A DNA stretch of 64,000 nt from a virus (IMGVR_UViG_3300025087_000689); one strand, 5' to 3'. Shown: positions 26,283 through 62,410, counted from the stretch's first letter. Program-made: numbers and translations. Notes: generated from the sequence alone by a model not told the origin.

Positions 26283-26792
26283 ATGCCTCGGAGAATGACT
26301 TTATTAACAGATTTAGATATTAACAAATATAAAGAAGGTGACTTATTCTATGCACCTAAACTTGGATATAAAAGACAAGGTTATATTAAATTTGTTTCTT
26401 GTCCAAGATGTGGAAAGTTAAAGTTTGCTTACGCTCATAAGAATGGAACTTTAGAGAATCACGAAACTAATCCTTATTGTCGTTCATGTATTCAAATTGT
26501 TAACAATGAAAAATTAGGATTTCAAAACCATGCACGTTATAAAGCAGCTAAAATGAAAGATAGTCACGGTTATATTTCTATAACCATAGATAAAAATGAT
26601 TCTTATGTTTCAATGTGTAGACATAGTAAACGTGGACATATTATTTCTGAACATAGATATGTTATGGCTAAATCATTGGGACGATGTTTAAAAACACATG
26701 AAGTGGTACATCATTTACCGTTTACGATTTTACAAAATAGAATTAAATATTTAGAAAATGTTCTTAAGGAGAATAATATACAATATGATTAA
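26283..26792 (+). CDS. Zn-finger/HNH endonuclease with the HNH core deleted in frame
   Basis: CPRC...CRSC, EHRYVMAKSLGR...EVVHH runs straight into LPFTILQ, lacking the NG.K.DNR.ENL seen in the paralogue 55439-56008. Confidence 0.65.
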   Translation: MPRRMTLLTDLDINKYKEGDLFYAPKLGYKRQGYIKFVSCPRCGKLKFAYAHKNGTLENHETNPYCRSCIQIVNNEKLGFQNHARYKAAKMKDSHGYISITIDKNDSYVSMCRHSKRGHIISEHRYVMAKSLGRCLKTHEVVHHLPFTILQNRIKYLENVLKENNIQYD

Positions 26793-29349: not shown

Positions 29350-29358
29350 TGATAAGGG

Positions 29359-31344
29359 GTGCAAATGTCGATAGGAATTAGAGAGCATTTTAGCAAAGAA
29401 GGCCGTAAGCTTTGTGAAGATAATTTAGGTTGGGATACGATCTGTGCTAAGTGGGATAAAGTTATTGGTGAAGTTAATATATCAAAGAATAATCCTTATC
29501 CTAAACTGAATATTCCTAAACCAACTAATCTAGAAGATCTTCTTGAGAAAGAGAAGAAGGATAGATTTTTATATGTTATGCCTGGAACATATGGAGATGT
29601 ATTTCTATCAACAGCTGTTATAGATGGCATTAAGAAAAAATATCCTGATAAGGATATCTATTTTGCTACCGGTGGACAGTATATTCAGATCTTAGAAGGT
29701 AATCCTAATATTCATAAAATTTTACCTTATGATGGAGTCTTCAATAATATACCGTTGATGAATAACTTATTTGATATTGTCTTCACTCCAGCCGTGGCAA
29801 CTCAAGCTTCAAATAATTGGACGAGAAATGGACATGGTGAACATTTAGCCCGAACATATGCCACTCATTGTGGTGTAGAACTCGGTAATTTATATATGAG
29901 GATCATTGAATCACAGGATGCACTGGAAGGTGATTATCTTGTTGTTCATACAAAGACAGGTCAAGAAGCCAAGAACTATAGTGAATACCAAAAGATTATT
30001 AATCAAATTGATATCCCAGTGGTTCAAGTCGGATCCAAAGACGATCAACTTCTTAAAAATGTAATTGATAAGAGAAGTAAGAACATACAAGAAACAGCCA
30101 GTATAATCAAGAAAGCAAAGCTCTTTCTCGGTGGTGATAGTATATGTGCACATATAGCTGGATATGTTGGAATTCCATCTGTGTTGTTATATGGTTCTAC
30201 ATTTTCGGCACTCACAAAACCACTTTATAAAGATCAGAGTAAACTTAATGTTATAGAACCAGCTAATAGATATAGTTGTGAGAGACCATGTCATTTAGCA
30301 AAATGTAATAGATCTCCTAATCCTTGTATTAATAATATTGACGCAAAGATGGTGGTTGAACACATAGGTACATTAGGAATACTTACTAAGGCTCCAGTAC
30401 CTCCCACTTTATCCGGCTATACTACAACATTGAATCCAGAGAAATATTATCCTTGGCGTCAGTCTATTAAATCATTACTAGGGGTGTGTGATGAAGTTGT
30501 TGTAGTTGATGGTGGTTCTACTGATGGTACATTAGAAGCCTTACAAGAGTGGAAGAAAACAGAACCTAAACTGAAGGTCTTTAAACGTAAGTGGAGAATG
30601 GACGAGCCAGCTATGGATGGTATGATGAAAAGTTATGCCAGAGCTCTATGTACTAAAGAATTCTGTTGGCAGCAGGATTGCGATGAACTAATACATGAAT
30701 CAGATTATTCAAAACTTAAGGATTTATTAATTAATTTTCCAAGTCAGGCTAAAGTGCTAACACTACCTGTTATTCATTTATATGGTACAACGAAAACAAT
30801 TCTTACAGATAAAGGATTATATAAGGCTCGTTTAAGTAAGAATCTACCAGAGATAACCCATGGTATTCCTAAACAACTTAGACAAACTACACCTCAAGGC
30901 AAATTGTTTTGTGATAAAGATCGTTCAGATGGCTGTGATTATATTAATTCACAGACTTTTGATCATGCAGATGGACAGATAAGTTTTATAAATGCTGAAC
31001 TTATGCAAGCACAACAGACTAATATGCCTAAGTTTAAATCTATGATGGTATCTGCTTTTAAACAGTTTCCAAGTGTATGGCATTTTTCTTGGCATGATTT
31101 AGTTCGTCGTATTAATGTTGATCTTGAATTTTGGGATGGTCAGTGGAATAGATTAAATACTGGACAGACTATACCTCCAAATCGTTTTTTTCCAAATACA
31201 AAACGTGAAGATGTAACTCCAGAACTAATTAAACAACGTGCAGATTTCCTTAAGGATAAAACATTAGAAGAAAAACCAATGGATCTAATACAGTTAAATT
31301 GGTTAGATACACCGGAGGTGATTAAGTCATGGCTATCCAAGTAA
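29359..31344 (+). CDS. Multidomain glycosyltransferase: GT4 tail + GT9-like + GT2
   Basis: FSKEGRKLCEDNLGWD (GT4 end); GTYGDVFLSTAVI...GGDSICAHIAG...LYGST (GT9); DEVVVVDGGSTDGT, QQDCDE (GT2). Confidence 0.85.
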   Translation: MQMSIGIREHFSKEGRKLCEDNLGWDTICAKWDKVIGEVNISKNNPYPKLNIPKPTNLEDLLEKEKKDRFLYVMPGTYGDVFLSTAVIDGIKKKYPDKDIYFATGGQYIQILEGNPNIHKILPYDGVFNNIPLMNNLFDIVFTPAVATQASNNWTRNGHGEHLARTYATHCGVELGNLYMRIIESQDALEGDYLVVHTKTGQEAKNYSEYQKIINQIDIPVVQVGSKDDQLLKNVIDKRSKNIQETASIIKKAKLFLGGDSICAHIAGYVGIPSVLLYGSTFSALTKPLYKDQSKLNVIEPANRYSCERPCHLAKCNRSPNPCINNIDAKMVVEHIGTLGILTKAPVPPTLSGYTTTLNPEKYYPWRQSIKSLLGVCDEVVVVDGGSTDGTLEALQEWKKTEPKLKVFKRKWRMDEPAMDGMMKSYARALCTKEFCWQQDCDELIHESDYSKLKDLLINFPSQAKVLTLPVIHLYGTTKTILTDKGLYKARLSKNLPEITHGIPKQLRQTTPQGKLFCDKDRSDGCDYINSQTFDHADGQISFINAELMQAQQTNMPKFKSMMVSAFKQFPSVWHFSWHDLVRRINVDLEFWDGQWNRLNTGQTIPPNRFFPNTKREDVTPELIKQRADFLKDKTLEEKPMDLIQLNWLDTPEVIKSWLSK

Positions 31345-39060: not shown

Positions 39061-39689
39061 ATTATATAGTTTGGGGTGGTACTGGTCAATGTAAAATTGT
39101 TCACGGTATTCTTGAACGACAAGGAATGAAATTAATTGCCATAGTTGATGATGTTATAAAGACGTCTCCTTTTTCTTCTATTCCGTTGTATACCGGAGAA
39201 GAACTTAAAAGTAATATTAGTAAGTTAGATGCTCATTTTGGAATAGTTGCTATCGGTAATCCTAATGGAAAACGTAGAGAACAATTGTCGAATACGTTAA
39301 GTAGATATGGATTCTATCCTATTAATGTTATTTCAGATGTCGCTTGGTTATCTGCTTCATCTAAATATATTAATGGGATCCAAGTATCCCCCAGAGCCTG
39401 TATAGGTGAAGATGTATTTATTGAAGAAGGTTGTATTATCAATTCCATGTCTAATATAGAACACGACTGTATACTTAGAAAGTACTCTGAAGTTGGTCCT
39501 ACAGCTACATTGTGTGGACACGTAGAAGTTGGAGAGTACTCTTGGATAGGTGGAGGAGCCATTATTAGACAAAGAATAAAGATCGGAAAGAATTCGATTG
39601 TAGGAGCTGGAGCGGTAGTTGTTAAAGATGTTCCAGATAATTCAATTTATGTTGGAAATCCAGCCAGGTTTTTAAAGGAGAACACATGA
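39057..39689 (+). CDS. NeuD/PglD-type hexapeptide sugar acetyltransferase
   Basis: IEHDC, HVEVGEYSWIGGGA..RQRIKIGKNSIVGAGAVV.KDV. Confidence 0.88.
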   Translation: MNYIVWGGTGQCKIVHGILERQGMKLIAIVDDVIKTSPFSSIPLYTGEELKSNISKLDAHFGIVAIGNPNGKRREQLSNTLSRYGFYPINVISDVAWLSASSKYINGIQVSPRACIGEDVFIEEGCIINSMSNIEHDCILRKYSEVGPTATLCGHVEVGEYSWIGGGAIIRQRIKIGKNSIVGAGAVVVKDVPDNSIYVGNPARFLKENT

Positions 39690-40792
39690 ATTGTATGTAT
39701 AGGGAAGGACCCTTAGTTACAAAGGATGACATTTCTGCCGTCTCGGCCGCGATGAAAACGTGCTTTTATGAAGATGCATATCAATTCATAAATCGATTTG
39801 AAGCAGATTTTGCAAGGTACCACGGCCGTAAATATGCAATTATGACACCAAATTGTACATCCGCCATACATCTTTTGTTAGCAGGAGTAGGAATTGGCAA
39901 AGGTGATGAGGTTATAGTTCCTGATCTAACTTGGGTTGCTACAGCTGCACCTGTCATTCAAACTGGGGCGAAGATAATTCCCTGCGATGTAGATGCTAAT
40001 TGGTGTTTAAATCCATATGATGTAAAAAAAAGAATAACAAAAAATACAAAGGCAATCATATTTGTTGATCTATATAGTAATATGGGTCAAATAAAAGAAC
40101 TTCAAAATATAGCTGATGAACATCATATTCCATTAATTGAAGATGCTGCCGAAGCATTGGGTTCTATTTATGAAAATAAAAAAGCTGGTTCATTTGGATT
40201 AGCATCAGTATTTAGTTTTCACCGTACCAAAACTATTACTTGTGGTGAAGGTGGTATGTTACTTTTAGATGATGAAAAACTTTATGATAAATGTATCATG
40301 CTTAGAAATCATGGTAGGAATGGAAAGACTTATTCTTTCTTTCCTGAAATGGTTGGTTACAAATACTTTCCTACAGATATACAAGCGGTACTTGCTCATT
40401 CTCAATTTAAAAAAATAAATAAATTACTTTTTATTAAACATGGACATTATGAATTTTATGAGAATGAATTAAAAGATAGTAAACACATACTTACTTTTAA
40501 TCAATCTCCAAAAACTAGTGGTTGTTGGGTAACATCTTTAATACTCAGTGAAGAGTTTACAGCTGATCAAGTTCTGAAAGAAATGAAGAAGATGGGAATA
40601 CCTATGCGTAGATTCTTTTATCCCTTAACTGCTATTCCTGCTTTTGGATTTAATACTAATAAATATAGTAAGATGAATTCAATGTCTTATTACTTATCTG
40701 AACATGGCATCAATCTTCCGGGTGCTTATATACTTAAAGACAAAGATTTAAAACTAGTTGTTAAGAATCTAAAGGAAGTATTACATGATTAA
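39686..40792 (+). CDS. DegT/DnrJ/EryC1/StrS sugar aminotransferase
   Basis: NCTSAIH, GDEVIVP, IEDAAEALG, FSFHRTKTITCGEGG. Confidence 0.9.
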   Translation: MNCMYREGPLVTKDDISAVSAAMKTCFYEDAYQFINRFEADFARYHGRKYAIMTPNCTSAIHLLLAGVGIGKGDEVIVPDLTWVATAAPVIQTGAKIIPCDVDANWCLNPYDVKKRITKNTKAIIFVDLYSNMGQIKELQNIADEHHIPLIEDAAEALGSIYENKKAGSFGLASVFSFHRTKTITCGEGGMLLLDDEKLYDKCIMLRNHGRNGKTYSFFPEMVGYKYFPTDIQAVLAHSQFKKINKLLFIKHGHYEFYENELKDSKHILTFNQSPKTSGCWVTSLILSEEFTADQVLKEMKKMGIPMRRFFYPLTAIPAFGFNTNKYSKMNSMSYYLSEHGINLPGAYILKDKDLKLVVKNLKEVLHD

Positions 40793-51920: not shown

Positions 51921-52805
51921 TTATAGTATTTTTCTTTGAAAGAACTGGTGAATATGGTACTCTACTGTGGTTCTATTTAGTCCTAAAGCAGTTGATATCT
52001 CCTGTGTTGGGGTTGGAGTTGAGTAGGAACCTAGTCCAAAACGCAGTTTAATGGCCTCAGAGAGCCAGATCTCGATACCAGCTAGGTCTTCTTCCAGTTT
52101 TCTATTTAACAGATTGTAGAAGCTGTCAGAGTGTTCCTGGTAATGGTGTCTGGTAGATTCAAGCGGCTCTATCTCCATAGAACTTAGTTGTAACTTTAGT
52201 CTGCTTAAATGACCTGTTAATTCTGTGGTTCTAATTGTCATCTTTCCCATATGTCTGGTCTTACGTATTACTTTAACTTCTCTTAGTAACTCTTTTTCTG
52301 TTATAGAGTTACTACCACTCCGTCTCTTCTGTACTAGCCTATCAAAGGCTTGTTCAGTTATCTTGGATAGATATGAGATTCTTGTAGCTAGTCTAACTGT
52401 TTGATTTTCGCGAATGAAACCTAAAATAGCCTTACGGATATAGAAATACGCGAAGGTAGAAAATTGATTACCATAAGACTGATCGAATCGATCTATAGCC
52501 TCACATAAGCCTAACATACCTTCTTGGCACAAATCATCTTTGCTATATCCACCCATTTCATTAGCTTGGCTGATTACTAGTGGATAGTTTTGTTCCATTA
52601 ACAGCGTACGTAAGCGAAGATATAGATTGAAATCACCACCATTGTTGCGAATTACTTTGCGAAAAGGTGAATGATCATCACTTGTACATACAGTACAGAA
52701 CTTCTTACAGCGTGGATATTTTACACACTTGGATTTTGCACAGAGAGTATGTATTTTTTTGCGTGTATCAGCCAGTTGTTTTAGTAACGGAACCTGATTT
52801 ATCAA
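51921..52805 (-). CDS. Sigma-70-family RNA polymerase sigma factor with Cys-rich N-terminus
   Basis: DDLCQEGMLGLCEAIDRFD...FSTFAYFYIRKAI (region 2); IKLRFGL...TQEISTALGLNRTTV (region 4). Confidence 0.88.
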   Translation of the reverse strand: MINQVPLLKQLADTRKKIHTLCAKSKCVKYPRCKKFCTVCTSDDHSPFRKVIRNNGGDFNLYLRLRTLLMEQNYPLVISQANEMGGYSKDDLCQEGMLGLCEAIDRFDQSYGNQFSTFAYFYIRKAILGFIRENQTVRLATRISYLSKITEQAFDRLVQKRRSGSNSITEKELLREVKVIRKTRHMGKMTIRTTELTGHLSRLKLQLSSMEIEPLESTRHHYQEHSDSFYNLLNRKLEEDLAGIEIWLSEAIKLRFGLGSYSTPTPTQEISTALGLNRTTVEYHIHQFFQRKIL

Positions 52806-53189: not shown

Positions 53190-53814
53190 CTAATGGTGTG
53201 ATATCCTTTGACTTACAAGGTTTTTGAAGATGTCACCATGTTCTATTATAGCATTAAGCGAACCATCCCCGTCACCATATTCCAAGGTAAGTATAATATA
53301 ATCCTTGTGTGTTTTCAATAGCTTTGTGAATTCTTCCTGACCCAGTCTTTGCTCCTCTGTTTCCATGGCGGCACATGTTTGCGTGTCTTTTACTCCAGAA
53401 ATCCTTAAATTCTTTAGTTCTTTTATCTTTCGTTAGAGTTTCCTGTTCTTTATCGATTTTAAATCCTTCATGGATAAGTTCAAGTTGTTTCTCCGAAGCT
53501 CCTTGATTCATTAAATCTATTATACTGTCTTCATCAAAGGCATATACGTGGTATGCTTGAGCCAACTGGTCGAGGACAGCGGTGTTTATTTCATCGATTG
53601 GTTTCTTCTTCTCTTCACAGTAGTCGTGATAGACCTTTTCAGCTATAGCTTTTAAGGATACTGGTCCATTATATTCATCTATAACGGCACCTTCTTCCCA
53701 GTCTCCTCGAAATAATAGTTTGCCCATCTCTTCTACACCGCCTACATGCTTGGGAAAGACAACTACAAAAGAACTAGATGAACTATTACTAACAAAACCA
53801 TTACGAATTTTCAT
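53190..53814 (-). pseudogene. FVSNSS-family protein 1, frameshifted near 53370
   Basis: Starts MKIRNGFVSNSSSSSF; the shifted frame gives AAMETEEQRLG...LEYGDGDGSLNAIIEHGDIFKNLVSQRISHH*. Confidence 0.65.
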
Positions 53815-54200
53815 CCATCCCTCCATGCACCCTCATGCCACGATACCGTTACATTGGGCTTGATAGGTTCAATCTTTTCCTTTGTACTGTCTTTAAATTG
53901 TTTACCTGTCTCGTCGTCTTTGATTGAATCATAATTTCTTCCTAAAACATATTCATCACAATCATAACCAAGTTGAGAGAAAATAAGTCCTAATGCATTG
54001 GATATTTTTTTCATAGCTTCATAATGATCGAAATCTTCATCCTCTTCATCCACGTCAAGTGAATCGATAGTTGGTATATTGATCGGTCTTGGATATAGTA
54101 TTTTAAGAGCTTGTTTCATATCATCAGGAGTAAAACTAGCACCAAAAATACAGAATGATGTAGTACTACTATTACTTACGAATCCAAATCTAATTTTCAC
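53811..54200 (-). CDS. FVSNSS-family protein 2
   Basis: GTG start 54200, MKIRFGFVSNSSTTSF; ATGA overlap with the next member. Confidence 0.7.
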   Translation of the reverse strand: MKIRFGFVSNSSTTSFCIFGASFTPDDMKQALKILYPRPINIPTIDSLDVDEEDEDFDHYEAMKKISNALGLIFSQLGYDCDEYVLGRNYDSIKDDETGKQFKDSTKEKIEPIKPNVTVSWHEGAWRDG

Positions 54201-54327
54201 TAGTAATTCTTTCTTTAAATTTAGAGTGTTTTTTCTTATCACATGTATCACATCCGTAACCATCGTAACTACAATGATCACAAACATTATCACATGCATA
54301 TAATTCTATAGCTTGTTCAGGTGTCAT
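54190..54327 (-). CDS. 45-aa Cys-rich peptide (not in ORF track)
   Basis: MTPEQAIELYACDNVCDHCSYDGYGCDTCDKKKHSKFKERITSEN; AGGGA RBS; overlaps both neighbours. Confidence 0.55.
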   Translation of the reverse strand: MTPEQAIELYACDNVCDHCSYDGYGCDTCDKKKHSKFKERITSEN

Positions 54328-54880
54328 ATTTTATTTCCCTTTCTTATATTATCTTCTGCTAATAATCATTGATGATTTTCAGGTGCCCAGCATTTTCTTA
54401 TTTCTTCTTCTTTAGATAAATCAAAAGAAGATACAGGTATTATATGATCGATGTGATACATGTGTCGTGGTCCTGGACAAGGTCCGAGATGGTTTATTAT
54501 GTCTTGTATTCTAATACCATATAACTTTGTTGATTTAGTCTTTTAATACCTTGTATTTTTAACATTTTACTAAATCTATTTCTTATACACCTTCTTATAT
54601 TAAATTTTAGATCATTTTTATATCTATTGTTAATATATTTTTTATATTTACTTGTTTTTTTATATTCTTTATTATATTTTTTGAGATATCTTTTAGCTTT
54701 TTCTGTCTTTTTATACATTTTATCGTATTCTCTAATATAATCTTTATGAACTTTACGATACTGCCTACAAGCTTCTTGGTGTAATTTTAATTTACAACTT
54801 TTTAAACTACAAATTACTCTTGGTCTACCTGCATAACCTCCATTTAATAATCTATTACAGAATTTGCATTTCATAATCAA
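54324..54880 (-). pseudogene. HNH endonuclease pseudogene (frameshift + nonsense)
   Basis: Shift in an A-run near 54541 into KTKSTKLYGIRIQDIINHLGPC...YHIDHIIP...PENHQ*L (TGA 54366-54368, W in the 18.7 kb paralogue). Confidence 0.75.
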
Positions 54881-55503
54881 TGTCGAGCAAATAATATAGT
54901 CTTTGTTTTACTATCAAAACATTTTTGACATTGTTTAACACAAGCTACTTTCCAATTATTTTTAGACGTACTTGGACAGTTAGTTTTGTGTTCTGTTACG
55001 ATGGCTATTTTATCAAATCCATAATTTTCTGTTGGAATCACATCGCCATCTTTTAAGATACCATCTCGTGAATAAATTAGAGTAAAGTTTTTTGGTTTTT
55101 CTTTCAAAACATCCTTTGTTATAATATCTGTTCGTTTTGAATAAGAGTAGAATTTATGATCTGAAAGACTACAAGCTATTGTATACCATTTATAGAAATA
55201 CTCTAAAGAATGATAATCCCCGGATTCGTGAATTCTAGTTATTTTATATTTACTTTTCTTAAGTAAATATAACATATCATCAACGAAAGTAACCGTCTTA
55301 GATGCTCTATAATTTCTCATCCTGCAAGGTCTTACGTCAGGATACATTTTTTCAGCTTTTTTACTGTAACAGAATTTAGAACAAAGAACTCCCGGTCTGC
55401 ATGTTATGCCTACTGGAAGATTGAATATGTTGCAATTTTTAATTTTTCTGTTCTGTTGACTTAGTGTTATTTGATCTTTGAATGTATTCTTCTTCGAGTT
55501 CAT
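54877..55503 (-). CDS. GP88-like (radical-SAM-like) protein
   Basis: FNLPVGITCRPGVLCSKFCYSKK, RIHESGDY, FYSYSK, C-terminal CP...C..CQKC. Confidence 0.7.
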   Translation of the reverse strand: MNSKKNTFKDQITLSQQNRKIKNCNIFNLPVGITCRPGVLCSKFCYSKKAEKMYPDVRPCRMRNYRASKTVTFVDDMLYLLKKSKYKITRIHESGDYHSLEYFYKWYTIACSLSDHKFYSYSKRTDIITKDVLKEKPKNFTLIYSRDGILKDGDVIPTENYGFDKIAIVTEHKTNCPSTSKNNWKVACVKQCQKCFDSKTKTILFARH

Positions 55504-56008
55504 TTAATCTTTTCCTATATCGTTGTATCTTCTTTTGGAGTTGAGTTAAACTACTATGAGTTCGATCATTTAATACATCAAGATTTTCTATTCTATTATC
55601 TGATTTATTACCATTAATATGATGCACATGTTCGTTAGATTCTAACGATCTTCCAAGCTTTTGCATCATTAAATAACGATGTTCTAGAATTTTACCTGGA
55701 TGTAATTTATCTGTATACTTATAAAGAGGATCTGTTTCAGGTATAGTTAAAAATGTGTAACCAGCACCTTGGAATCTTCCTCCCTTCCAATTAGAAGCTG
55801 AAGATCCCCGTAGTTCCTTCATTTTATTAATACGACACTCGTTACAGTATTTCTTTTGATGTTTAACTGAAGTCCAAACAAGTGTACCACAACTAATACA
55901 CTTCTTGTAGATGTATGCTTCGTTATACTTATTTATTAATTTACCATCAGCAACATCGTTTTCTTTAGGTAATCCTAAACCAAAATAGGTACGTGGATAT
56001 TTTATCAT
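55439..56008 (-). CDS. HNH homing endonuclease with N-terminal Zn finger
   Basis: CISC...CNEC; EHRYLM..KLGR.L...EHVHHINGNKSDNRIENL. Confidence 0.85.
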   Translation of the reverse strand: MIKYPRTYFGLGLPKENDVADGKLINKYNEAYIYKKCISCGTLVWTSVKHQKKYCNECRINKMKELRGSSASNWKGGRFQGAGYTFLTIPETDPLYKYTDKLHPGKILEHRYLMMQKLGRSLESNEHVHHINGNKSDNRIENLDVLNDRTHSSLTQLQKKIQRYRKRLNELEEEYIQRSNNTKSTEQKN

Positions 56009-56024
56009 AATAACCTCCGTACCT

Positions 56025-56053
56025 ATTATAGTTTATTTAACAGGTAAATTCAA
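56025..56053 (-). promoter_or_regulatory. Sigma-70-like promoter TTGAAT-N17-TATAAT
   Basis: Upstream of GGAGG and ATG 56008. Confidence 0.55.
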
Positions 56054-56106
56054 TATATAATTATAATTATATTTTTCTATTACTAGTACTTAAAGTAATA
56101 GAAGAC

Positions 56107-56319
56107 TTAGGCATGTCGTTCCATATCCCTCCGTGATCTTTCTCTTTGTTGACGGCACCAATCATCGTGCTGCTTCCAAGCTATGTCTTTCTGTCTATCA
56201 ATGTTTTTGGCCATTGATAATTTCTTCTGACAGCTCTCACAGGCTAGTTCACCTCTAGCTATCCTTTGACCACAGTGTTTCTGAACCCTTTCTCTGAGTT
56301 CTATTTCGTTGAACATCAT
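56107..56319 (-). CDS. Small hypothetical protein
   Basis: AGGAG RBS; CESC motif. Confidence 0.5.
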   Translation of the reverse strand: MMFNEIELRERVQKHCGQRIARGELACESCQKKLSMAKNIDRQKDIAWKQHDDWCRQQRERSRRDMERHA

Positions 56320-56361
56320 TGTCGATCTCCTCTATTGGATATATATCGTGTTTATCCTAGA

Positions 56362-56601
56362 TCACTCTAGGGCATCTATTTCTTTTTGATTCTTAGCAGT
56401 CTCTATTCTTTTTAGATAGTTTTCAAATTTCCAATTTACTATTTCTTTAATGTCTTTCTGTGTGGTTCTACGCACCTTCATTCCCTCACGTTTAAGTTTG
56501 TTCTGAAGGTGTTTAATCTCGGAAGTGATAAATCTCTTTGGTACTGCACATATCCAAGGGTGACCACCAGGATCACATATAGAAAAACCTAGTTTATTCA
56601 A
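56362..56601 (-). CDS. Hypothetical protein
   Basis: Coupled ORF. Confidence 0.5.
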   Translation of the reverse strand: MNKLGFSICDPGGHPWICAVPKRFITSEIKHLQNKLKREGMKVRRTTQKDIKEIVNWKFENYLKRIETAKNQKEIDALE

Positions 56602-57178
56602 TTGTTAATTGGAGATCATTAATATTTTGAAATTGAATTAGTTTACTATGTCCACAAAAACCTCGCTTACCATTTCTTAATGCATCTGCATCTTTTACAA
56701 GTGCTTCTTTGAGATACAATTTATTAAAGAGATTAGGTGATGCTAGTCCGCATATATAAGCAGTACCTGTATCTTTATCTATGTGGACTATAATCTGAGG
56801 TTGTTTTTCTAATAATTGAATTAATGGACAATTGTGCATTTGTGCAGATTTAACACCACAGTCAATACCTAACGGTTTAAGATCTGGCTTTGCGTGATTC
56901 TTACTATTGCTAATTTTTAAATCAACAAATTGAACTTGTAGAAATTTTTCTACAGCTCGTTCTCCCAATAGTCCGTTTTCTCTTCGTTCGTTATCTTTGA
57001 ATGTATCTAAAATAAGAGTATCTTCAGGATGATCTCTTTTCCATTCTGTTATTTCGTTACCCCATTTTTTAGCAGCTACTACAAATTCTTTTATATCTAT
57101 TTTGTGAGCAGATTTAAAATCTATGCTACGTATCACGTTGTCATTTTCTTTTAAGTTGTACTTGATATTAAATCTCAT
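56594..57178 (-). CDS. Possible restriction-endonuclease-fold protein
   Basis: GLLGERAV...PDL...IDCGVKS spacing resembles PD-(D/E)xK. Confidence 0.4.
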   Translation of the reverse strand: MRFNIKYNLKENDNVIRSIDFKSAHKIDIKEFVVAAKKWGNEITEWKRDHPEDTLILDTFKDNERRENGLLGERAVEKFLQVQFVDLKISNSKNHAKPDLKPLGIDCGVKSAQMHNCPLIQLLEKQPQIIVHIDKDTGTAYICGLASPNLFNKLYLKEALVKDADALRNGKRGFCGHSKLIQFQNINDLQLTIE

Positions 57179-57327
57179 TCATCTTCCTGAGTATCATCTT
57201 CAGTCGATACTATATTATCACGTCTACAATGTTTGACGTGTCCGTAGTCATTCATCTTAAAATTTTTGAAACAATTATTACATTCTTTTTCTGTCATCCA
57301 ACCATTACATTTACATTCGTATATCAT
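57175..57327 (-). CDS. 50-aa Cys-rich, acidic-tailed mini-protein (not in ORF track)
   Basis: MIYECKCNGWMTEKECNNCFKNFKMNDYGHVKHCRRDNIVSTEDDTQEDE; overlaps both neighbours. Confidence 0.5.
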   Translation of the reverse strand: MIYECKCNGWMTEKECNNCFKNFKMNDYGHVKHCRRDNIVSTEDDTQEDE

Positions 57328-57623
57328 ATTAAACAAAACTCCACGATGTTAATTGGTTCAGACTTACGCTTAGTGTTTTTAGTTTTGGAAATAATGGGGT
57401 TATATTGTACTGGAATGTTATATGCTTTCTGGAGGTTTCCATATGCACGATAATACGTTCCTTCATCTGATAATCCACCACATTCGAATATAGTTCCTAC
57501 TGGGTTATCATATCGAATAGCTCGCGACCCCTGTACATTCTTTTTAGAATTGTATTTTTGTCCTTCAATAGCTCTTAGACGGATCCGGTTTCCATCGAGA
57601 ATAGATCTAACGTAAACTGACAT
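57324..57623 (-). CDS. Hypothetical protein
   Basis: AAGGA RBS. Confidence 0.5.
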   Translation of the reverse strand: MSVYVRSILDGNRIRLRAIEGQKYNSKKNVQGSRAIRYDNPVGTIFECGGLSDEGTYYRAYGNLQKAYNIPVQYNPIISKTKNTKRKSEPINIVEFCLI

Positions 57624-57625
57624 TG

Positions 57626-57967
57626 TTATTCCTTTGCTGATACTTCGTACATTACGAAGTATTGTATTGTAGATAATTCTAAACTTAATGGGATAGCATC
57701 TATTGTTTTCATTGTTCCTTGTGTTTTATTCTGTGTTTGGTTAGAAATAGTTTCCTGTGTTGTAATATAATCAATATTAACTCCACCCGATAGAATACCA
57801 TTATAAGTTTTTGGAATTGGAATTATGTTGTTTACACTTATATCAAGTGATTTCTGATCAGAAGCCATGTAATGCTGTATCTCTTCTAATAATACTTGTA
57901 GATCTGATTCTTTTTCAATTAGAATCACATATGGTCCTACTGGTGTACTGTTACTTAAATTATACAT
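57626..57967 (-). CDS. Hypothetical protein
   Basis: AAGGA RBS. Confidence 0.5.
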   Translation of the reverse strand: MYNLSNSTPVGPYVILIEKESDLQVLLEEIQHYMASDQKSLDISVNNIIPIPKTYNGILSGGVNIDYITTQETISNQTQNKTQGTMKTIDAIPLSLELSTIQYFVMYEVSAKE

Positions 57968-57976
57968 GTTGTTCCT

Positions 57977-58738
57977 TTATGTCCAAAGTGATTTTCTTAA
58001 TTTGATTAGATCTATCATGGCTTTAGTAATATCTTCTTCACATTCATCTTCGTATTTTAAACTGGCATCTAAAGCTACTCTAGATTCTATTCGTTCTTCT
58101 GGCGTGTTGTTATTATTTGAAGTAAATGAAGTTGGATCGCCATCTTTGTCAGTCGTATAAGGTACTAAATTATCGAATATATTACTAATATTAGGATGTT
58201 TTTTGTCACAATAATGATGCCAAGGATTATTATCATAGTCGGTATACTTAGGATAAACATCCTTCCACCAATGCCAAAGACGTAACGCGTCTTTCATGGT
58301 ATTTGCTTGACGTTGGTTTATATATTTAGCATCTTCTCTATGTTCTTCTGGTACATCTTCGAAGTTATTACCCCAATTAGATTCTAGTTCTTTTATGAAC
58401 CCCAACATCTTTGCTTCTCCGCCTTGTTCGCTTTCAACATAACGACAAAGAAGAGAAAACATACCGTGAACCATAAGAGTATCTATGTCATAGTACTCTG
58501 GTGGTAATCCTGTGTCTATCTTATGATACACGTCAGTGGTTCTATGACGTATAGACCAATAGATATGTTTAAGCCTCTGGAAACCAGGCATAAAGTCTTC
58601 AAGAAGAGGAAGTATAGGACCCTTCCATCTTATTTCTGATTTATATCCTTTCCACCATCTACGAAGACGAACATAGAGATTAGGATTGTCATTAGTAAAC
58701 ATATTAGTTATAACTTTCCCATGTGAAGTCAGCTCCAC
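57977..58738 (-). CDS. Phage-type hypothetical protein
   Basis: 253 aa; LWHWWK..YP and C-terminal LIKLRKSLWT. Confidence 0.55.
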   Translation of the reverse strand: MELTSHGKVITNMFTNDNPNLYVRLRRWWKGYKSEIRWKGPILPLLEDFMPGFQRLKHIYWSIRHRTTDVYHKIDTGLPPEYYDIDTLMVHGMFSLLCRYVESEQGGEAKMLGFIKELESNWGNNFEDVPEEHREDAKYINQRQANTMKDALRLWHWWKDVYPKYTDYDNNPWHHYCDKKHPNISNIFDNLVPYTTDKDGDPTSFTSNNNNTPEERIESRVALDASLKYEDECEEDITKAMIDLIKLRKSLWT

Positions 58739-59201
58739 CTTGATTAGTTAAATATTCAAAGTAAATATTCTGAAGAAGATTACTCATATCGTTAAATGAA
58801 TTATGCATAGAAGTAAAATAAGTTAAAGTATATTTTCCAACGTTGTCGGTCGCTATAGCTATACCCTCATGATTCATTATATATAACATAGCTTCTAAAC
58901 GACGCCTATTCTCATTTAATGATCCTCCAAATCCACTCCTGTCTTGCATAACCATTCTTACTCTAGGTGGTCTTTCTGGAATGTTGTCAAATACTGACTT
59001 TATTATAGTTGTTTTAATCTTTTCGATTCTACGAAACTCTTCCATACGAGCGAAGTATGCATCCTCGTTTTCATGTACAGCAACCCAACAAGTATCATAG
59101 ATGTCTAACAATAAACTATCTACACTATCAAATGGTTTATTGAGAGTTACTATATAGGAGGCTGATGAACTATTCGAGACGAACCCTTGGCGGATCTTCA
59201 T
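58704..59201 (-). CDS. FVSNSS-family protein 3
   Basis: MKIRQGFVSNSSSASY. Confidence 0.75.
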   Translation of the reverse strand: MKIRQGFVSNSSSASYIVTLNKPFDSVDSLLLDIYDTCWVAVHENEDAYFARMEEFRRIEKIKTTIIKSVFDNIPERPPRVRMVMQDRSGFGGSLNENRRRLEAMLYIMNHEGIAIATDNVGKYTLTYFTSMHNSFNDMSNLLQNIYFEYLTNQGGADFTWESYN

Positions 59202-59210
59202 ATCAGTTAT

Positions 59211-59239
59211 ATTATACCTTATTTTTGATTAAAAATCAA
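59211..59239 (-). promoter_or_regulatory. Sigma-70-like promoter TTGATT-N17-TATAAT
   Basis: 9 nt before ATG 59201, with no SD sequence. Confidence 0.55.
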
Positions 59240-59357
59240 TACTTTGTTGCCAAGAATCTTCTATTATATTCATAAGAAGATTCTCAGTTTGCTGCTCGTT
59301 TGGTTCAGCTAGAGTTGAGAGATACGTACCATGAAGAATTCTGTTCTCTTTCTCTAA

Positions 59358-59738
59358 CTATTCGAAGAGTTCTTTATTCATCTTTATCCATAAGCTTTTA
59401 AGTTTTTTACGATTTAGGTTGATGTACCCGCCCTCGTCTGGTCCACCGTCAATAGAAGTAAGTGCGTATTGCTCCATGATTTGAGATAGAGCTTCTGAGA
59501 TGTCGAAGTCCTCACCTGATAGACCAAGCTCTTCGCTATAGGTATGTTCCTGTGACGCGATGGTCGCGATACATTCATTGATCTTGGTCACGATATCTTC
59601 AGTAATCTCATCAGCTTCAATACAGTCTTTGATTTTACTTGGAAGAGTTTCCAATGTAAATTCTGGAATTTTCTTTGGTAGTAGAACTACAAAGCTTGAA
59701 CTGCTCGAGTTTGATACGAATCCATTTCTAATTTTCAT
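59358..59738 (-). CDS. FVSNSS-family protein 4
   Basis: MKIRNGFVSNSSSSSF from ATG 59738, TAATG-coupled to member 5. Confidence 0.75.
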   Translation of the reverse strand: MKIRNGFVSNSSSSSFVVLLPKKIPEFTLETLPSKIKDCIEADEITEDIVTKINECIATIASQEHTYSEELGLSGEDFDISEALSQIMEQYALTSIDGGPDEGGYINLNRKKLKSLWIKMNKELFE

Positions 59739-59989
59739 TAATCGTTCCATTCTATTTTATCTTCTGGTATACCAATCTTATCGAAGTAATCTGCCATACT
59801 AAAGTTATCCAGAGAGGTAAAACCTTCTACTGTAGTTTCAGTCTCTGTAATGAGCCAAGGATCAGCATCAAATCCTGGTTCTAGACATGCATCATGTATA
59901 AGATATATTTGTTCTCGTGTTAATTCAGATTTATTAATCACGAAAGAACTGCTAGATGAATTACTTACGAATCCGTTTCTTATTTTCAT
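59738..59989 (-). CDS. FVSNSS-family protein 5
   Basis: MKIRNGFVSNSSSSSF from ATG 59989 after AAGGAG. Confidence 0.75.
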   Translation of the reverse strand: MKIRNGFVSNSSSSSFVINKSELTREQIYLIHDACLEPGFDADPWLITETETTVEGFTSLDNFSMADYFDKIGIPEDKIEWND

Positions 59990-60231
59990 TTTATACTCCT
60001 TATTGTTCCACAAATTGTACAACGACCCATTGGATGTTTCTTACTAACTTTGAATTTGTGTTCACAGCTTTCAGCTAGATCTGTCCATGCATGAGAACTA
60101 AGTAATTGATATATCTCATAATAGATAGGATTAGCGTTTTTCTTATCCATCTTCTTAGCTGTGTAATTCATACATCTCATAAGCTTACGCATGTACTTCT
60201 TGAGATATTTTCTATCTAATTTATCTTTCAT
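59986..60231 (-). CDS. Small protein with C-terminal Cys/His cluster
   Basis: CEH...HP...CTIC. Confidence 0.5.
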   Translation of the reverse strand: MKDKLDRKYLKKYMRKLMRCMNYTAKKMDKKNANPIYYEIYQLLSSHAWTDLAESCEHKFKVSKKHPMGRCTICGTIRSIK

Positions 60232-60599
60232 ATTGTCTCCGAGGGCATAGATAGTATAAGATCTTCTGTTCTAAAGAAAATTGGTATCTTTAGCTTCGTC
60301 GCTCTGTCTAATTCTTTTCTCGTACCTAGTGAAGATTCCCATCCTGGAACCACAAGTACAGCATCAGCCTTCTCAAGCCAAGCAATAGAATACTCATAAA
60401 AGTCTTCCGTCTTTATATGAGTAACATCAACATCATCCATTACTAAATTAAATAGAAAATCCACGAAAGGCGAAAAGGGTGCATAACCTAATAGAAATAC
60501 TTTTGAACTTAGCTGGATGCCTTTACGAATGTTATTGAGATACTTACCAGCACTTGGAGCATTGATAGCTCCAGCTATATAAACTCTTTTTCTTTTCAT
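60228..60599 (-). CDS. DUF4406 / nucleoside deoxyribosyltransferase-like protein
   Basis: VYIAGAI...PFSP...WLEKADAVLVVPGWESSLGTRKE...A....IPIF. Confidence 0.7.
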   Translation of the reverse strand: MKRKRVYIAGAINAPSAGKYLNNIRKGIQLSSKVFLLGYAPFSPFVDFLFNLVMDDVDVTHIKTEDFYEYSIAWLEKADAVLVVPGWESSLGTRKELDRATKLKIPIFFRTEDLILSMPSETI

Positions 60600-60808
60600 T
60601 TAGTCCTCGTGTTCCACTTCTCAATGAGTCTGCTTTTCTTGGACATAGATAAGGTTTCGTAATTCATACAGTGTAAATAACAGTCTCGAAAATGTTTAAC
60701 TATTAATTCATAATATCCTTGTCCTACACTTTCTATGTATGGATATACACCACAGAAAGGACATGGTAAAAACTCTTCTTGTTTCTTTTTCGTAATAACT
60801 TGTTTCAT
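60596..60808 (-). CDS. Lar-like restriction-alleviation family protein
   Basis: LPCPFCG...C..C...IEKWNTR. Confidence 0.6.
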   Translation of the reverse strand: MKQVITKKKQEEFLPCPFCGVYPYIESVGQGYYELIVKHFRDCYLHCMNYETLSMSKKSRLIEKWNTRTK

Positions 60809-61065
60809 TAGTATACATCTCCGTTAAATTTTATTTTTTCATCTTCATAAGGACCGACTAGTCTACGGTAGAATTCAAGCTTAGCACATTCAAGAGCTCC
60901 AACTATGGCGTTAAGTGAAGTATAGTTTAATGCGTGATGTTCTATGTAACTAATACATAGTTTTGTAATCGCATAATTAAGTTCACCTTCGGTGAGTGTT
61001 GAATTTATAATCCTTTTAAGTTTAGGATCTATAGTAGTTTTTATTCTTTGTTCTATATATGGCAT
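60808..61065 (-). CDS. Phage-type hypothetical protein
   Basis: MPYI...GELNY...YTSLNAIVGALECAKLEFYRR..PYED.K...NGDVY. Confidence 0.6.
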   Translation of the reverse strand: MPYIEQRIKTTIDPKLKRIINSTLTEGELNYAITKLCISYIEHHALNYTSLNAIVGALECAKLEFYRRLVGPYEDEKIKFNGDVY

Positions 61066-61445
61066 TAATATACTCCTTCTATTGGATTAAAGTTATGATT
61101 CTTTTCAGCGTCTTCTTTAATCATTTCACTCGTCAGCATTTTAAGATTGTATTTTTTTACACCAGCTACTTCCTCAGCACTATGTTGAGCATCTGCTTGA
61201 TACATCATAGACCATTCTTGACCAAACTTTTCTTGCATCATAGAACGAGCAGTCTCTTGATCATATGCCTGAATTACAATGTAATGGTTTCCCCACTTCT
61301 GACCACATCCAAAAGTACATACATATGTCATAAGGTCACTCTTCTCTCTACTTGCATCTCCATCATGTAACGGTAATGGTGTACCTGTTCTTCTAAAATT
61401 AATTTGTTCTCTTGAAATAGACATTAGATGTTGTATAAAGGACAC
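61065..61445 (-). CDS. Hypothetical protein
   Basis: CTFGCGQ...YIVIQA...AR..M...FG..WS..Y. Confidence 0.5.
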   Translation of the reverse strand: MSFIQHLMSISREQINFRRTGTPLPLHDGDASREKSDLMTYVCTFGCGQKWGNHYIVIQAYDQETARSMMQEKFGQEWSMMYQADAQHSAEEVAGVKKYNLKMLTSEMIKEDAEKNHNFNPIEGVY

Positions 61446-62410
61446 TTGCGATTATTTTTAAGTAGTCCTTCTCTCCATACTTGCATACGTTCATTGTTCC
61501 AAACATCTTCCATGTAGGCTTTGCATGTAATCATATCTAATCCAGTTTCCCATCCAGGAGTTCCAGGAGCAAAACTACACGGAAAAGCTTTCGCATTTAC
61601 ATCTATATAAATAGAAAATAATGAGCTCTCACAAGGCTCAACAAATACAGATAATTTCTTGAGCTTCTCATTCCCAGTTTCATCTACATATTTGAGAAAT
61701 TTGTGAGCAGTACAACTATCAAACCCTATTGAAACCTTATGTGACATAGCATAGTCAATCATATCTTTGAATAAATAATAAGGAAGCGGAGTAAATCCTA
61801 CACCTCTACCCTTCTGTTTCAAAGATAACATTACAATGGCATTAAGACCTGGAATATTTTTAGCTTCATTCATGATATCATAACACTTGCTTAACGTTTC
61901 GTCTGATACCATTTGATGTATATTTATCTGCTTGAGACCAGCCTCATGTAATAGTTGAATAGACCGCTTACAAGTATCAGTATCGTAATGACTTACAGCT
62001 ACGGCTCCACATAAACTCGCAAGCTTTTCAGCTGTATCTTCTGTAATATCAGCTACTGTAATGTTAGGAACTACATTATTTTGACGGCAATACTCCATCA
62101 TCTTAAATAGATCTGGATTAGCTGTTGCTTGAGAATCTACTCCGAATGCGACTTGTGTTAGATTTTTAGGTAACTTATCAAGTATTATCTTGAAAGTTTC
62201 AAAACTCATATTCTTGCCGTTAGGGTTGTTAGATTTATAGCAATGTTTACAACCACTATAGCAGATAGTTGTGATCTCAATATCCCCAATTTCAAGTCCT
62301 ATTGGAGATACTTGAGGATCATCCTGTCTTGTTTTACCCCAGCGAACAAAGAAACCTGTTTCAGTATCAAAATCGTAGTTATACTCTGGAAGACGGAGAC
62401 GCTTTACCAT
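61424..62410 (-). CDS. Radical SAM enzyme with C-terminal SPASM/Twitch-like Cys
   Basis: CYSGCKHCY (CxxxCxxC); EPCES..FSIYI.V....FPCSF...C...CP. Confidence 0.88.
   Translation of the reverse strand: MVKRLRLPEYNYDFDTETGFFVRWGKTRQDDPQVSPIGLEIGDIEITTICYSGCKHCYKSNNPNGKNMSFETFKIILDKLPKNLTQVAFGVDSQATANPDLFKMMEYCRQNNVVPNITVADITEDTAEKLASLCGAVAVSHYDTDTCKRSIQLLHEAGLKQINIHQMVSDETLSKCYDIMNEAKNIPGLNAIVMLSLKQKGRGVGFTPLPYYLFKDMIDYAMSHKVSIGFDSCTAHKFLKYVDETGNEKLKKLSVFVEPCESSLFSIYIDVNAKAFPCSFAPGTPGWETGLDMITCKAYMEDVWNNERMQVWREGLLKNNRKCPLYNI

Follow-up and report, generated by a model that had tools for sequence, protein, structure and literature searches.

A 16-residue N-terminal tag shared by otherwise unrelated phage proteins is a probable recognition element for the radical SAM enzyme that the phage encodes

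Five genes of a large phage encode proteins that begin with nearly the same 16 residues and then part ways. We propose, with a probability of roughly 0.6, that this N-terminus is the recognition element of a radical SAM enzyme encoded by the phage itself, and probably its substrate as well. A functional partnership of tag and enzyme is very likely, and direct binding of the tag by the enzyme, as modelled, is likely; for a covalent change inside the tag we put the odds slightly below even. The genes lie in a stretch of 64,000 nucleotides from the virus IMGVR_UViG_3300025087_000689, the whole of which is called the window here.

The tag follows the consensus M/V-K-I-R-x-G-F-V-S-N-S-S-x-x-S-F/Y and is common to five minus-strand ORFs of the window. 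A preliminary description had reported these ORFs and their common N-terminus; all five starts were confirmed (upper coordinates in Table 1), and a six-frame regular-expression scan of the whole 160,162-bp phage genome returned exactly five copies in an N-terminal context and no sixth. The ORF starting at 53814, which had been listed as one of five paralogues, carries a real tag but is only the front of a gene, family A (53190-53814), that is broken by a +1 frameshift near 53367-53380. At that site the nearest relative with an intact gene, P0007 (209 aa; 55% identical), reads straight through, and the back piece has homologues in 17 comparison loci. In the AlphaFold model of family A the C-terminal strands encoded by this back piece are paired with the strand just after the tag. 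The stop of P0001 and the start of P0002 overlap. In the gap upstream of P0003 there is a weak promoter-like site (59239-59211).

Table 1. Tagged genes and the radical SAM gene in the window.
Feature	Position	Strand	Properties
Radical SAM enzyme	61424..62410	-	328 aa; C-terminal SPASM/twitch-like auxiliary Cys set
P0001, tagged	59738..59989	-	83 aa; pI 4.2; tag codons 59942-59989; body of the 'MDNFDM' family
P0002, tagged	59358..59738	-	126 aa; pI 4.6; tag codons 59691-59738
P0003, tagged	58704..59201	-	165 aa; pI 5.4; variant ...RQG...SSSASY; tag codons 59154-59201
P0004, tagged	53811..54200	-	129 aa; GTG start; pI 4.6; variant ...RFG...SSTTSF
Family A tagged gene, front part	53272..53814	-	180-aa ORF; tag plus ~150 aa
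Family A tagged gene, back part	53190..53366	-	conserved C-terminus LEYGDGDG...IEHGDIF...RISHH

Is the shared start a property of the protein or of the nucleic acid? A DNA or RNA element, such as a cassette for recombination or a module for initiating translation, would agree with the ATG/GTG context common to the five copies and with the GGA-type ribosome-binding site of four of them. The tag DNA contradicts it: column identity among the copies is only ~68% whereas the peptide is nearly invariant, and the Ser codons alternate between the AGY and TCN families from copy to copy. Because of this switching and the low DNA identity, we conclude, as had been claimed at the outset, that conservation acts on the peptide. 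The radical SAM enzymes linked to tags are only 41-56% identical across genomes, yet the same tag peptide is kept, and we give a nucleic-acid feature hardly any credence.

Among 290 distinct tagged proteins, 288-290 retain K2, R4, G6, F7, N10, S11 and S12, and F7-V8-S9 reads F in 290, V in 279 and S in 282 (T in 8), counts to be read against the selecting regular expression, which already limits positions 2-4 and 6-12 and at positions 7, 8 and 9 admits F, V/I/L/A and S/T. Positions 15 and 16 were free in that expression, and there S15 is found in 284 and F16 in 277 of the 290. At E<=1e-3 a hidden Markov model of the tag matches 23,374 protein clusters. PHROG 7397 is hit by four of the five clients (E 4e-7 to 6e-4), over no more than residues 1-19 to 1-41, and PHROG 7293 by the enzyme along its entire length (E 1e-83); both groups are annotated as 'unknown function'.

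Past about residue 20 the five proteins of the window show no detectable similarity and sit in different BLAST clusters; the 290 bodies at large fall into 96 clusters. Profile-profile comparison of the 12 largest clusters, three of the five window proteins included, gave probabilities below 5%. The divergence after the tag, first noticed in the sequence alone, holds. Tagged proteins measure 74-279 aa (median 129) and 91% of them are acidic. The preliminary description had also pictured one enzyme acting on a set of unrelated cargo. Unrelated the bodies are, but they are recurring conserved families and not random cargo. The largest body cluster, with 39 members in 30 loci, is the 'DDETGxQFK...AWRDG' family of P0004; the family of P0001 recurs in 25-27 other loci; the cluster of P0002 has 11 members in 7 loci; and P0003 is a singleton in the clustering of the 290 bodies. 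The families of P0004, P0001 and P0005 are each present in 17-30 further loci.

Could the bodies still descend from one old ancestor, with the N-terminal strand and Ser loop serving as the clients' own site, for example for a phosphate group or a small-molecule product of the radical SAM enzyme, and not as something the enzyme recognises? In the AlphaFold models of family A (pLDDT 91.7) and P0004 (pLDDT 84), an alpha/beta sandwich has as its first strand the Ser run plus the hydrophobic residues that follow (residues 13-21 and 13-23, respectively), paired with the C-terminal strands, and family A ends in a strongly conserved, site-like acidic/His C-terminus (EYSDxDG...EHGD...ISxH). However, neither model has secondary structure assigned before residue 13, and the invariant residues 1-9 are of low confidence in the isolated proteins (below 50 in family A; an average of 54 over residues 1-10 of P0004). 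Between their common first and last strands the two models follow different topologies, the body profiles are dissimilar, and the complex model described below, whose controls score 0.00, puts the tag in the enzyme. We regard such a superfamily as quite improbable.

The enzyme carries the motif C50-x3-C54-x2-C57, whose three Cys are invariant in 22 homologues, most of them with a longer first spacer. Invariant in the same homologues are the auxiliary C233, C260, C278 and C323. The seven-Cys SPASM pattern with CX2CX5CX3C, which binds two auxiliary 4Fe-4S clusters, is not present in the enzyme, where no C-terminal Cys but these four is invariant, and by its sequence the C-terminal part looks like a one-cluster, twitch-like form of SPASM. 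The Pfam scores for Radical_SAM (PF04055, 23.9 bits) and SPASM (PF13186, 14.5 bits) stay below the cut-offs of 29.5 and 21.5, respectively; the bacterial homologue of locus L121 reaches 57.3 and 34.1 bits and passes for SPASM. NCBIfam returned weak matches to MftC, the CXXX-repeat maturase and NirJ, all scoring far below cut-off. Neither Pfam nor NCBIfam detects a PqqD-like recognition domain, for which the N-terminal extension of ~45 residues looks too short. Residues ~10-25 of the enzyme hold a family-specific strand motif with invariant N11, G19, W24 and G25.

How closely do tag and enzyme keep company? The enzyme family is rare (173 of 50,697 phage records). The tag is present in 25 of 26 viral records that bear the enzyme (9/9 of those at least 90% complete), and the enzyme in 37 of 49 records that bear the tag (10/10 of those at least 90% complete), counts that are not fully independent, as many of the compared genomes may be kin. 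Among the 12 tag-bearing records without a detectable enzyme, two with a completeness of 79% and 88% (250-261 kb) are negative even at E<=1. Of 77 tag-centred loci, 46 have the enzyme within 10 kb, without exception on the same strand and at a median distance of 631 nt; 207 tags are located downstream of the enzyme gene and 30 upstream. Typically the enzyme gene is followed by a same-strand tandem array of tagged genes, as in locus L001, where one untagged gene and then seven tagged genes follow; related phages have 1-16 tagged clients. In the window, abutting or overlapping genes from 62936 to 59358 connect the enzyme with P0001 and P0002, and the other three lie farther off, at distances from 2.2 kb (P0003) to 7.6 kb. 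Adjacency is not universal, since ~19-23 kb separate tags and enzyme in T4-like phages. The tie between the motif and the CxxxCxxC radical SAM gene proposed in the preliminary description is thus borne out by two-way co-occurrence and conserved synteny, and by a complex model with clean controls.

A GP88-like, radical-SAM-type gene had been put forward as a second partner of the tags. The gene at 54877-55503 is indeed a GP88 member (PF17338, 94 bits), but a partnership with the tags is not supported: of 88 comparison loci just 1 has a homologue, as does the contig of a close relative, and the adjacency is therefore a trait of this phage lineage.

The large phages offer a different precedent for a shared start. 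Internal proteins of T4 have a short N-terminus in common, then diverge, and act against host defence; their capsid-targeting sequence works with the prohead protease. The tag might be a sorting signal of this kind, and the enzyme simply a marker of the same lineages: in both cases large phages carry sets of small, fast-evolving proteins alike only at the N-terminus, and the tagged bodies are small and 91% acidic. Unlike the T4 sequence, the tag travels with the radical SAM enzyme, also in bacterial chromosomes, where the two form an adjacent two-gene unit with no phage head genes nearby. In Acetatifactor muris, for example, the pair stands beside Avs-like and restriction genes; the bacterial relative adjoins Avs-like STAND and nuclease genes. 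Among ten T4-like reference genomes RB43 alone has the enzyme and RB43 alone has tags. Across 88 loci no gene besides the enzyme recurs next to the tag arrays, be it a peptidase, exporter, transporter, protease or head gene. A sorting signal is, in our estimate, very improbable.

The enzyme was modelled with P0001, SAM and two 4Fe-4S clusters in three runs and with three controls. This check, which had been proposed along with the motif, gave a complex score (the model's own confidence) of 0.89, compared with 0.00 for the best control, and placed the tag in the enzyme. Of 80 solved complexes 58 attain the mark of that score, and of 110 mismatched pairs 2 do, counts that hold only roughly because our own alignments were used and ligands rode along. 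At least 71% of the contacts are common to the three runs. The fold of P0001 itself is uncertain in the complex (pLDDT at least 42, about 43), and the enzyme contacts residues 1-20 of it only. In the model, tag residues 1-6 lie against enzyme residues 18-25, G6 and F7 are the deepest tag residues in the barrel, and Phe7 sits within it against residues 86, 114, 116, 135, 136 and 161. Of the 57 enzyme residues in modelled contact, 25 are invariant across the family, versus 22 of the remaining 271 (Fisher p = 6e-10).

We envisage that a single enzyme would serve the five clients here, four intact and one split by the frameshift. Residues ~1-12 of each client would lack assigned secondary structure ahead of the first beta-strand of an unrelated, mostly acidic body. 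MKIRxG (tag 1-6) would pair as an added beta-strand with the N-terminal strand 18-25 of the enzyme, including the invariant G19, W24 and G25; G-F-V-S-N (~6-10) would go into the SAM-binding barrel, and the Ser run would lie along the auxiliary-cluster domain. A 5'-deoxyadenosyl radical could then take a hydrogen from a residue around Gly6-Ser9 and leave the same covalent mark on every client, candidates being a crosslink of the Phe7-x-Ser9 type, oxidation at the Ser9 beta-carbon, or epimerisation.

Or does the enzyme only hold the tag? It might grip the N-terminus as a handle or adaptor and do its chemistry on a residue of the body or on a third molecule brought by the tagged proteins, or do none, the role of the tagged proteins being to regulate or localise it. 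Co-occurrence, synteny and the complex model fit this equally well, and the best-determined modelled contacts are those of tag residues 1-7 with the N-terminal strand. In leader-dependent radical SAM systems, such as those of RiPPs, what is conserved at the N-terminus usually serves as the handle, and the modification falls elsewhere, a rule that counts against modification of the tag. On the other hand, it is difficult to name a common site beyond the tag in bodies that share nothing else, invariance extends to residue 16, well beyond the strand-pairing part, and Phe7 is modelled amid barrel residues that bind SAM and substrate. We judge a pure handle unlikely. The motif had been described as a leader or recognition tag or else a modification site; a peptide tag tied to the radical SAM enzyme stands, and it may be either a handle or the site of a modification such as Ser oxidation, a crosslink or cleavage.

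The system of radical SAM enzyme plus tag is widespread, and no description of it was found in the literature searched. A broader reading, in which the tag is modified, is tentative and rather doubtful: enzymes of large phages and bacterial defence islands may covalently rewrite the tag (around G6-F7-V8-S9) of unrelated acidic proteins, a protein-level counterpart of RiPP maturation with the conserved tag itself as product, the modified N-terminus being needed in phage-host conflict. As its biological purpose we suggest the maturation of early host-takeover or anti-defence proteins.

The RiPP maturases of the SPASM/twitch group (SuiB/StrB-streptide, CteB, SkfB, PqqE, MftC) likewise pair a radical SAM enzyme having an auxiliary-cluster domain with neighbouring genes that share an N-terminal recognition sequence, and they take the substrate peptide into the barrel, as modelled here; the weak NCBIfam matches point to the same group. 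Their precursors are short, whereas our clients of 74-279 residues have predicted folded bodies, two of them with confident AlphaFold folds. RiPP clusters include a leader peptidase or exporter, and none is conserved beside the arrays (88 loci). A PqqD-like domain may serve recognition there; Pfam and NCBIfam detect none here, and a family-specific N-terminal strand is modelled as pairing with the tag instead. Not a variable core but the conserved part would enter the barrel.

The anSME/AtsB-sulfatase systems resemble ours in that a SPASM-group enzyme acts on whole proteins, modifying a Ser/Cys-containing motif close to the N-terminus. That motif, (C/S)-x-P/A-x-R, is absent from the tag, and no sulfatase Pfam match was found in the five clients. 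anSME has two auxiliary clusters; the window's enzyme has only four conserved auxiliary Cys and no sequence relative among PDB entries. Activases of glycyl-radical enzymes (PFL-AE) bind an RVxG(F/Y/W) loop that a large barrel enzyme carries close to its C-terminus, thus taking an Arg...Gly-aromatic segment into their own barrel, and the tag offers R4-x-G6-F7. However, I-R-x-G-F is one residue shorter and N-terminal on small unrelated proteins, with no 10-stranded barrel to shelter a radical, and the activases are without the SPASM/twitch part that the auxiliary Cys set represents here.

FxSxx-COOH peptides occur with FxsB-type radical SAM/SPASM enzymes in NTP-dependent conflict systems, their conserved piece being C-terminal and released by a peptidase (Kaur, Burroughs, Iyer, Aravind 2020, PMC7159879). 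Like our system, these place a radical SAM/SPASM gene by variable proteins or peptides that share a short conserved motif containing F-x-S, in a conflict locus; unlike them, the tag is at the extreme N-terminus, no peptidase is conserved nearby, and NCBIfam gives no match to FxsB. The aromatic-x-X motif of three-residue cyclophanes (triceptides) and FxsB is present as F7-V8-S9, which alone does not show the chemistry; by its NCBIfam matches, which are weak and to other maturases only, the enzyme falls outside the FxsB and 3-CyFE families.

In the case of ProcM and the prochlorosins, one maturase handles many precursors that share one leader. As in our system, a single enzyme meets many substrates, an invariant recognition part precedes a hypervariable rest, and copy number varies by genome. 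ProcM is a lanthionine synthetase, not a radical SAM enzyme, and it is the variable part of a prochlorosin that ends up as modified product; in our system whole proteins take the place of that part, and the tag would be the only common site for chemistry.

The five proteins that the preliminary description had singled out share an N-terminus, as claimed there. Translated from the minus strand, P0001 to P0005 (see table) each open with M(V)KIRxGFVSNSSxxS(F/Y), the 16-residue tag, and when all six frames of the window and of the complete genome (a single contig of 160,162 bp, 33% GC) were scanned, copies with this N-terminal context were found in these five only. A GGA-type ribosome-binding site precedes the MKIR start in four of the five genes. 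The tag-encoding DNA has a per-column identity of about 68% and its serine codons switch between AGY and TCN from copy to copy, which shows, in agreement with the earlier proposal, that the peptide is conserved and a nucleotide repeat is not. This codon variation rules out a DNA or RNA repeat as the origin of the tag. In the databases the motif sits nearly always at residue 1. The tag is very widespread: a profile run against 1.84 billion proteins (50% identity representatives) matched 23,374 clusters at E<=1e-3, of which 764 reach E<=1e-10. Of 343 tagged ORFs in the fetched loci, 290 remained after duplicates and those shorter than 60 aa had been set aside. K2, R4, G6, F7, N10, S11 and S12 are kept in 288-290 of these 290 proteins, where the regular expression that selected the ORFs already fixes or restricts tag positions 2-4 and 6-12. 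Among the positions left unconstrained, S15 occurs in 284 and F16 in 277, with Y otherwise. Position 5 is free.

Does the tag travel with the radical SAM enzyme encoded nearby? A single enzyme protein as query retrieved no related loci and an alignment was needed; built from four homologues, it gave 26 viral contigs. A 34-column tag profile matches 25 of these 26 enzyme-bearing records. The matching records have 1-16 tags each and include all nine with a completeness of at least 90%. The sole record without a tag is a 24.6-kb fragment. In the reverse direction, tblastn of one tagged protein against the phage collection returned nothing, probably because the low-complexity filter masked the serine run, and HMM searches were therefore used for the tag. 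A tag alignment yielded 77 loci, and the enzyme profile matches 37 of the 49 tag-bearing records searched, among them all ten that are at least 90% complete. Four large, incomplete tag-bearing records (79%, 88%, 49% and 40% complete) gave no enzyme match even at E<=1 and are possible exceptions to the linkage.

Gene order points the same way. The enzyme lies within ±10 kb in 46 of the 77 tag-centred loci, on the same strand in all, and its distance to the nearest tag has a median of 631 nt; 207 tags lie downstream of the enzyme versus 30 upstream. Typically, as in the comparison loci L001, L011 and L018, tagged genes stand in a tandem array that begins within about 1 kb after the enzyme gene. 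The link between tag and radical SAM enzyme suggested in the preliminary description is thus supported by co-occurrence in both directions and by synteny, as well as by the complex model described below. L001, a 78-kb phage contig with seven tagged genes in its array, also carries, a few kb downstream of them, an IS200/IS605-type TnpA (Y1 transposase) gene and a TnpB-like gene (13208-14899).

Sequenced phages carry the enzyme family in 173 of 50,697 records, nearly all of them T4-like phages of Klebsiella, Enterobacter, Cronobacter, Citrobacter and Escherichia, with Vibrio phage D479 in addition. In KP27 two tags lie some 19-23 kb away from the enzyme; the five tags of D479 are within 11 kb. 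As a control within the T4-like family we compared ten reference genomes (T4, RB69, RB49, KVP40, RB43, Aeh1, S-PM2, CC31, 133 and 44RR): RB43 alone has the enzyme, and RB43 alone has tags. The phage studied here has no T4-like hallmarks by PHROG matches.

Across 88 loci, no window gene other than the radical SAM gene recurs beside tags: homologues of the metallophosphoesterase occur in 7, those of GP88 in 1 and those of other window genes in 0-2. The earlier attempt to tie two of the tagged genes to the neighbouring GP88 gene is therefore not borne out, and we reject GP88 as a partner of the tag. Its adjacency, shared by a close relative of this phage, is a feature of the lineage and not part of the system.

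The product of the radical SAM gene contains C50-x3-C54-x2-C57 and matches PHROG 7293 over its full length. Pfam scores are weak (Radical_SAM 23.9 bits, SPASM 14.5 bits), and NCBIfam detects a faint likeness to the SPASM-type maturases MftC, CXXX-repeat and NirJ. Enzymes linked to tags are 41-56% identical to one another. The three cluster cysteines and four more (C233, C260, C278 and C323) are invariant in 22 homologues; judged by sequence, the additional four point to a single, putatively twitch-like auxiliary cluster at the C-terminus rather than a full SPASM domain. The window enzyme has the canonical CX3CX2C spacing, and in the three other homologues of enzyme alignment A4 the first spacer is longer, with about 8 to 13 residues ahead of CX2C. 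One in-frame stop (TAG, TGA or TAA) is present in each of the homologues of the viral records G038, G043, G044, G069 and G075, one of which is a 548-kb genome; stop-codon recoding, introns or broken genes could account for them. The RB43 homologue (NC_007023, 92778-93852, minus strand) is covered by two adjacent ORFs matching profile positions 4-327 and 324-359, and its last part, with the final conserved cysteine, may be frameshifted in that record.

Co-folding of motif and enzyme, as envisaged in the preliminary description, gave a confident complex. The prediction combined the window enzyme (alignment of 22 rows) and P0001 (24 rows) with SAM and two 4Fe-4S clusters. The complex score, a model confidence and no measurement, was 0.89, against 0.00 for the best of three controls. 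The score mark is attained by 58 of 80 solved complexes and 2 of 110 mismatched pairs, counts that hold only roughly here because our own alignments were used and small molecules were included. At least 71% of contacts are common to three runs; the pLDDT of P0001 in the complex is at least 42, so the partner's own fold is uncertain. The enzyme has no sequence relative in the PDB, which makes it unlikely, as far as sequence goes, that the model reproduces a similar known complex. In the model, enzyme contacts are confined to residues 1-20 of P0001. Residues 1-6 are placed against enzyme positions 18-25 and 28-31, and Phe7 against 86, 114, 116, 135, 136 and 161, which by alignment are inner strand ends of the barrel, where radical SAM enzymes bind SAM and substrate. 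In the auxiliary-cluster part, P0001 is predicted to touch the stretches 225-233, 255-261 and 278-280. The enzyme family is invariant at 25 of the 57 residues in contact, versus 22 of the 271 others (Fisher p = 6e-10); G19, W24 and G25 of a family-specific motif are among these invariant contacts.

What, then, does the tag precede? The 290 tagged proteins have a median length of 129 residues and acidic bodies (median pI 4.5, below 5.5 in 91%). From residue 21 onward they fall into 96 BLAST clusters (67 singletons), and profile-profile comparison (hhalign) of the 12 largest gave probabilities below 5% throughout. The divergence beyond the N-terminus noted earlier thus holds, and on the comparison of these 12 clusters we reject the idea that all bodies form one detectable superfamily. 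Pfam and NCBIfam gave no matches for the five window clients. The bodies nevertheless include recurrent families and are not a random set. P0004 belongs to the largest (39 members in 30 loci; ...DDETGxQFK...AWYDG), P0001 to the second largest (27 members; ...MDNFDM...) and P0005 to family A, with the conserved C-terminus EYSDxDG...LEHGDIF...HIRISxH.

P0005 is encoded by the sole family A tagged gene of this phage. A +1 frameshift, located between about 53380 and 53367, splits this gene and leaves the conserved C-terminus in a separate ORF one base out of frame. The same 180-residue truncation occurs in a near-identical database entry, the closest intact relative (P0007) has 209 residues, and no slippery sequence is evident at the shift. 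The split may reflect a pseudogene, a split gene or an assembly error.

AlphaFold2 models were made of family A (P0007 with 107 sequences; pLDDT 91.7, pTM 0.84) and of P0004 (32 sequences; pLDDT 84). Residues 1-9 of the former fall below 50 and residues 1-10 of the latter average 54; in both models the invariant first nine to ten residues are thus of low confidence, and no secondary structure precedes residue 13. Family A has a strand at 13-21, comprising the end of the serine run and FIVVF, and two others (174-182 and 202-207) supplied by the conserved C-terminus. P0004 is modelled as an alpha/beta sandwich with its first strand at 13-23. In these predictions the tail of the tag begins the first strand of two unrelated bodies. 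Foldseek with family A against the PDB gave a best E of 0.4, with helical-hairpin noise, its search of AFDB its own uncharacterised family only, and VIA-align a best Z of 6.1 over 54 residues; searches with P0004 (PDB, AFDB) gave weak ferredoxin-like resemblances (best E 0.3, best Z 4.3). No fold family is assignable from the models, and the lack of a match does not imply a new fold.

Genes abut or overlap on the minus strand from 62936 down to 59358, in the order metallophosphoesterase-like, radical SAM, 126-aa ORF, DUF6899, Lar-like, DUF4406, 81-aa ORF, P0001 and P0002. This layout suggests a single transcript; a promoter and terminator scan was at chance (48 sites versus 48.5 expected) and uninformative on operon limits. 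The small genes between the enzyme and the first tagged gene fit an early anti-defence or nucleotide-metabolism block.

Features of the window around the tagged genes and on the plus strand
Feature	Coordinates	Strand	Remark
Primase-helicase fusion	19767-23393	+	1208 aa
Large ORFs with glycosyltransferase-like regions, an aminotransferase	26758-31344, 39686-40792	+	plus-strand half of the window
Sigma-70 region 2 protein	51921-52805	-	phage-encoded; just downstream of tagged genes
Back ORF of split family A gene	53190-53366	-	58 aa
P0005, front of split family A gene	53814-53272	-	180 residues
P0004	start 54200	-	129 residues
GP88 family member	54877-55503	-	
HNH endonuclease	55439-56008	-	overlaps GP88 gene start
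P0003	start 59201	-	165 residues
P0002	start 59738	-	126 residues
P0001	start 59989	-	83 residues
Five small genes between radical SAM gene and P0001	59986-61445	-	several overlapping
DUF4406 / nucleoside deoxyribosyltransferase-like protein	60228-60599	-	
Lar-like restriction-alleviation protein	60596-60808	-	
DUF6899	60808-61065	-	
Radical SAM enzyme	61424-62410	-	328 aa

A scan of cellular genomes added 23 loci, several of which have a single tagged gene, with the variant MKIRNGFVTNSSSTSF, directly upstream of a homologous radical SAM gene (E 1e-41 to 1e-52). An example of such a bacterial pair is found in the isolate Acetatifactor muris DSM 23669 (locus L121, 5444-16018). Its genes encode, in order, an MBL-fold protein matching Avs1a and LmuA models, a 984-aa protein with a weak Avs2 (STAND) match, a 142-aa ORF, the tagged protein (T9 variant) and a radical SAM/SPASM enzyme that clears the Pfam Radical_SAM and SPASM thresholds; a methyltransferase and then a type IV restriction enzyme follow. 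The pair adjoining Avs-like STAND and restriction genes suggests a tag-enzyme module common to defence and counter-defence.

The data fit one enzyme serving many clients, with the N-terminal 16 residues as the recognition element. Because the clients have no other shared part, and because invariance extends into the segment modelled inside the barrel, the simplest interpretation is that the chemistry, too, takes place on the tag. Enzymes of the SPASM/twitch group form aromatic-x-X crosslinks, oxidise the serine beta-carbon (anSME) or epimerise residues; as candidate chemistries, the tag could be crosslinked within F7-V8-S9, oxidised at the beta-carbon of Ser9, or epimerised. Formation of a glycyl-type radical at G6 can also be imagined, although its surroundings are wrong for a stable radical; membership of a glycyl-radical system was set aside on both spacing and context. 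That the clients are small and acidic, that they sit in an early block beside a Lar-like anti-restriction gene, and that a bacterial counterpart exists all point to a possible role in phage-host conflict.

Should the tag be modified by the enzyme, whole proteins would be receiving a new post-translational modification from a radical enzyme that a virus encodes. Functional work on many 'hypothetical' early genes of large phages would then have its first point of entry. Cultured phages of Escherichia, Klebsiella, Enterobacter and Cronobacter (RB43, phT4A, KP27 and GAP161 among them) carry the system, which is directly testable in cultured coliphages. A 16-residue tag sufficient for recognition by one enzyme could also serve as a tool. 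Searches of the literature for the motif strings and for phage radical SAM protein modification returned nothing relevant. The theme of a leader-dependent radical SAM maturase is familiar; here it would putatively act on whole proteins. The nearest published case is the FxSxx-type C-terminal peptide that accompanies a radical SAM/SPASM enzyme in NTP-dependent conflict systems (PMC7159879). Those systems have a C-terminal motif and peptidase processing, whereas the tag described here is N-terminal and is linked to another enzyme family.
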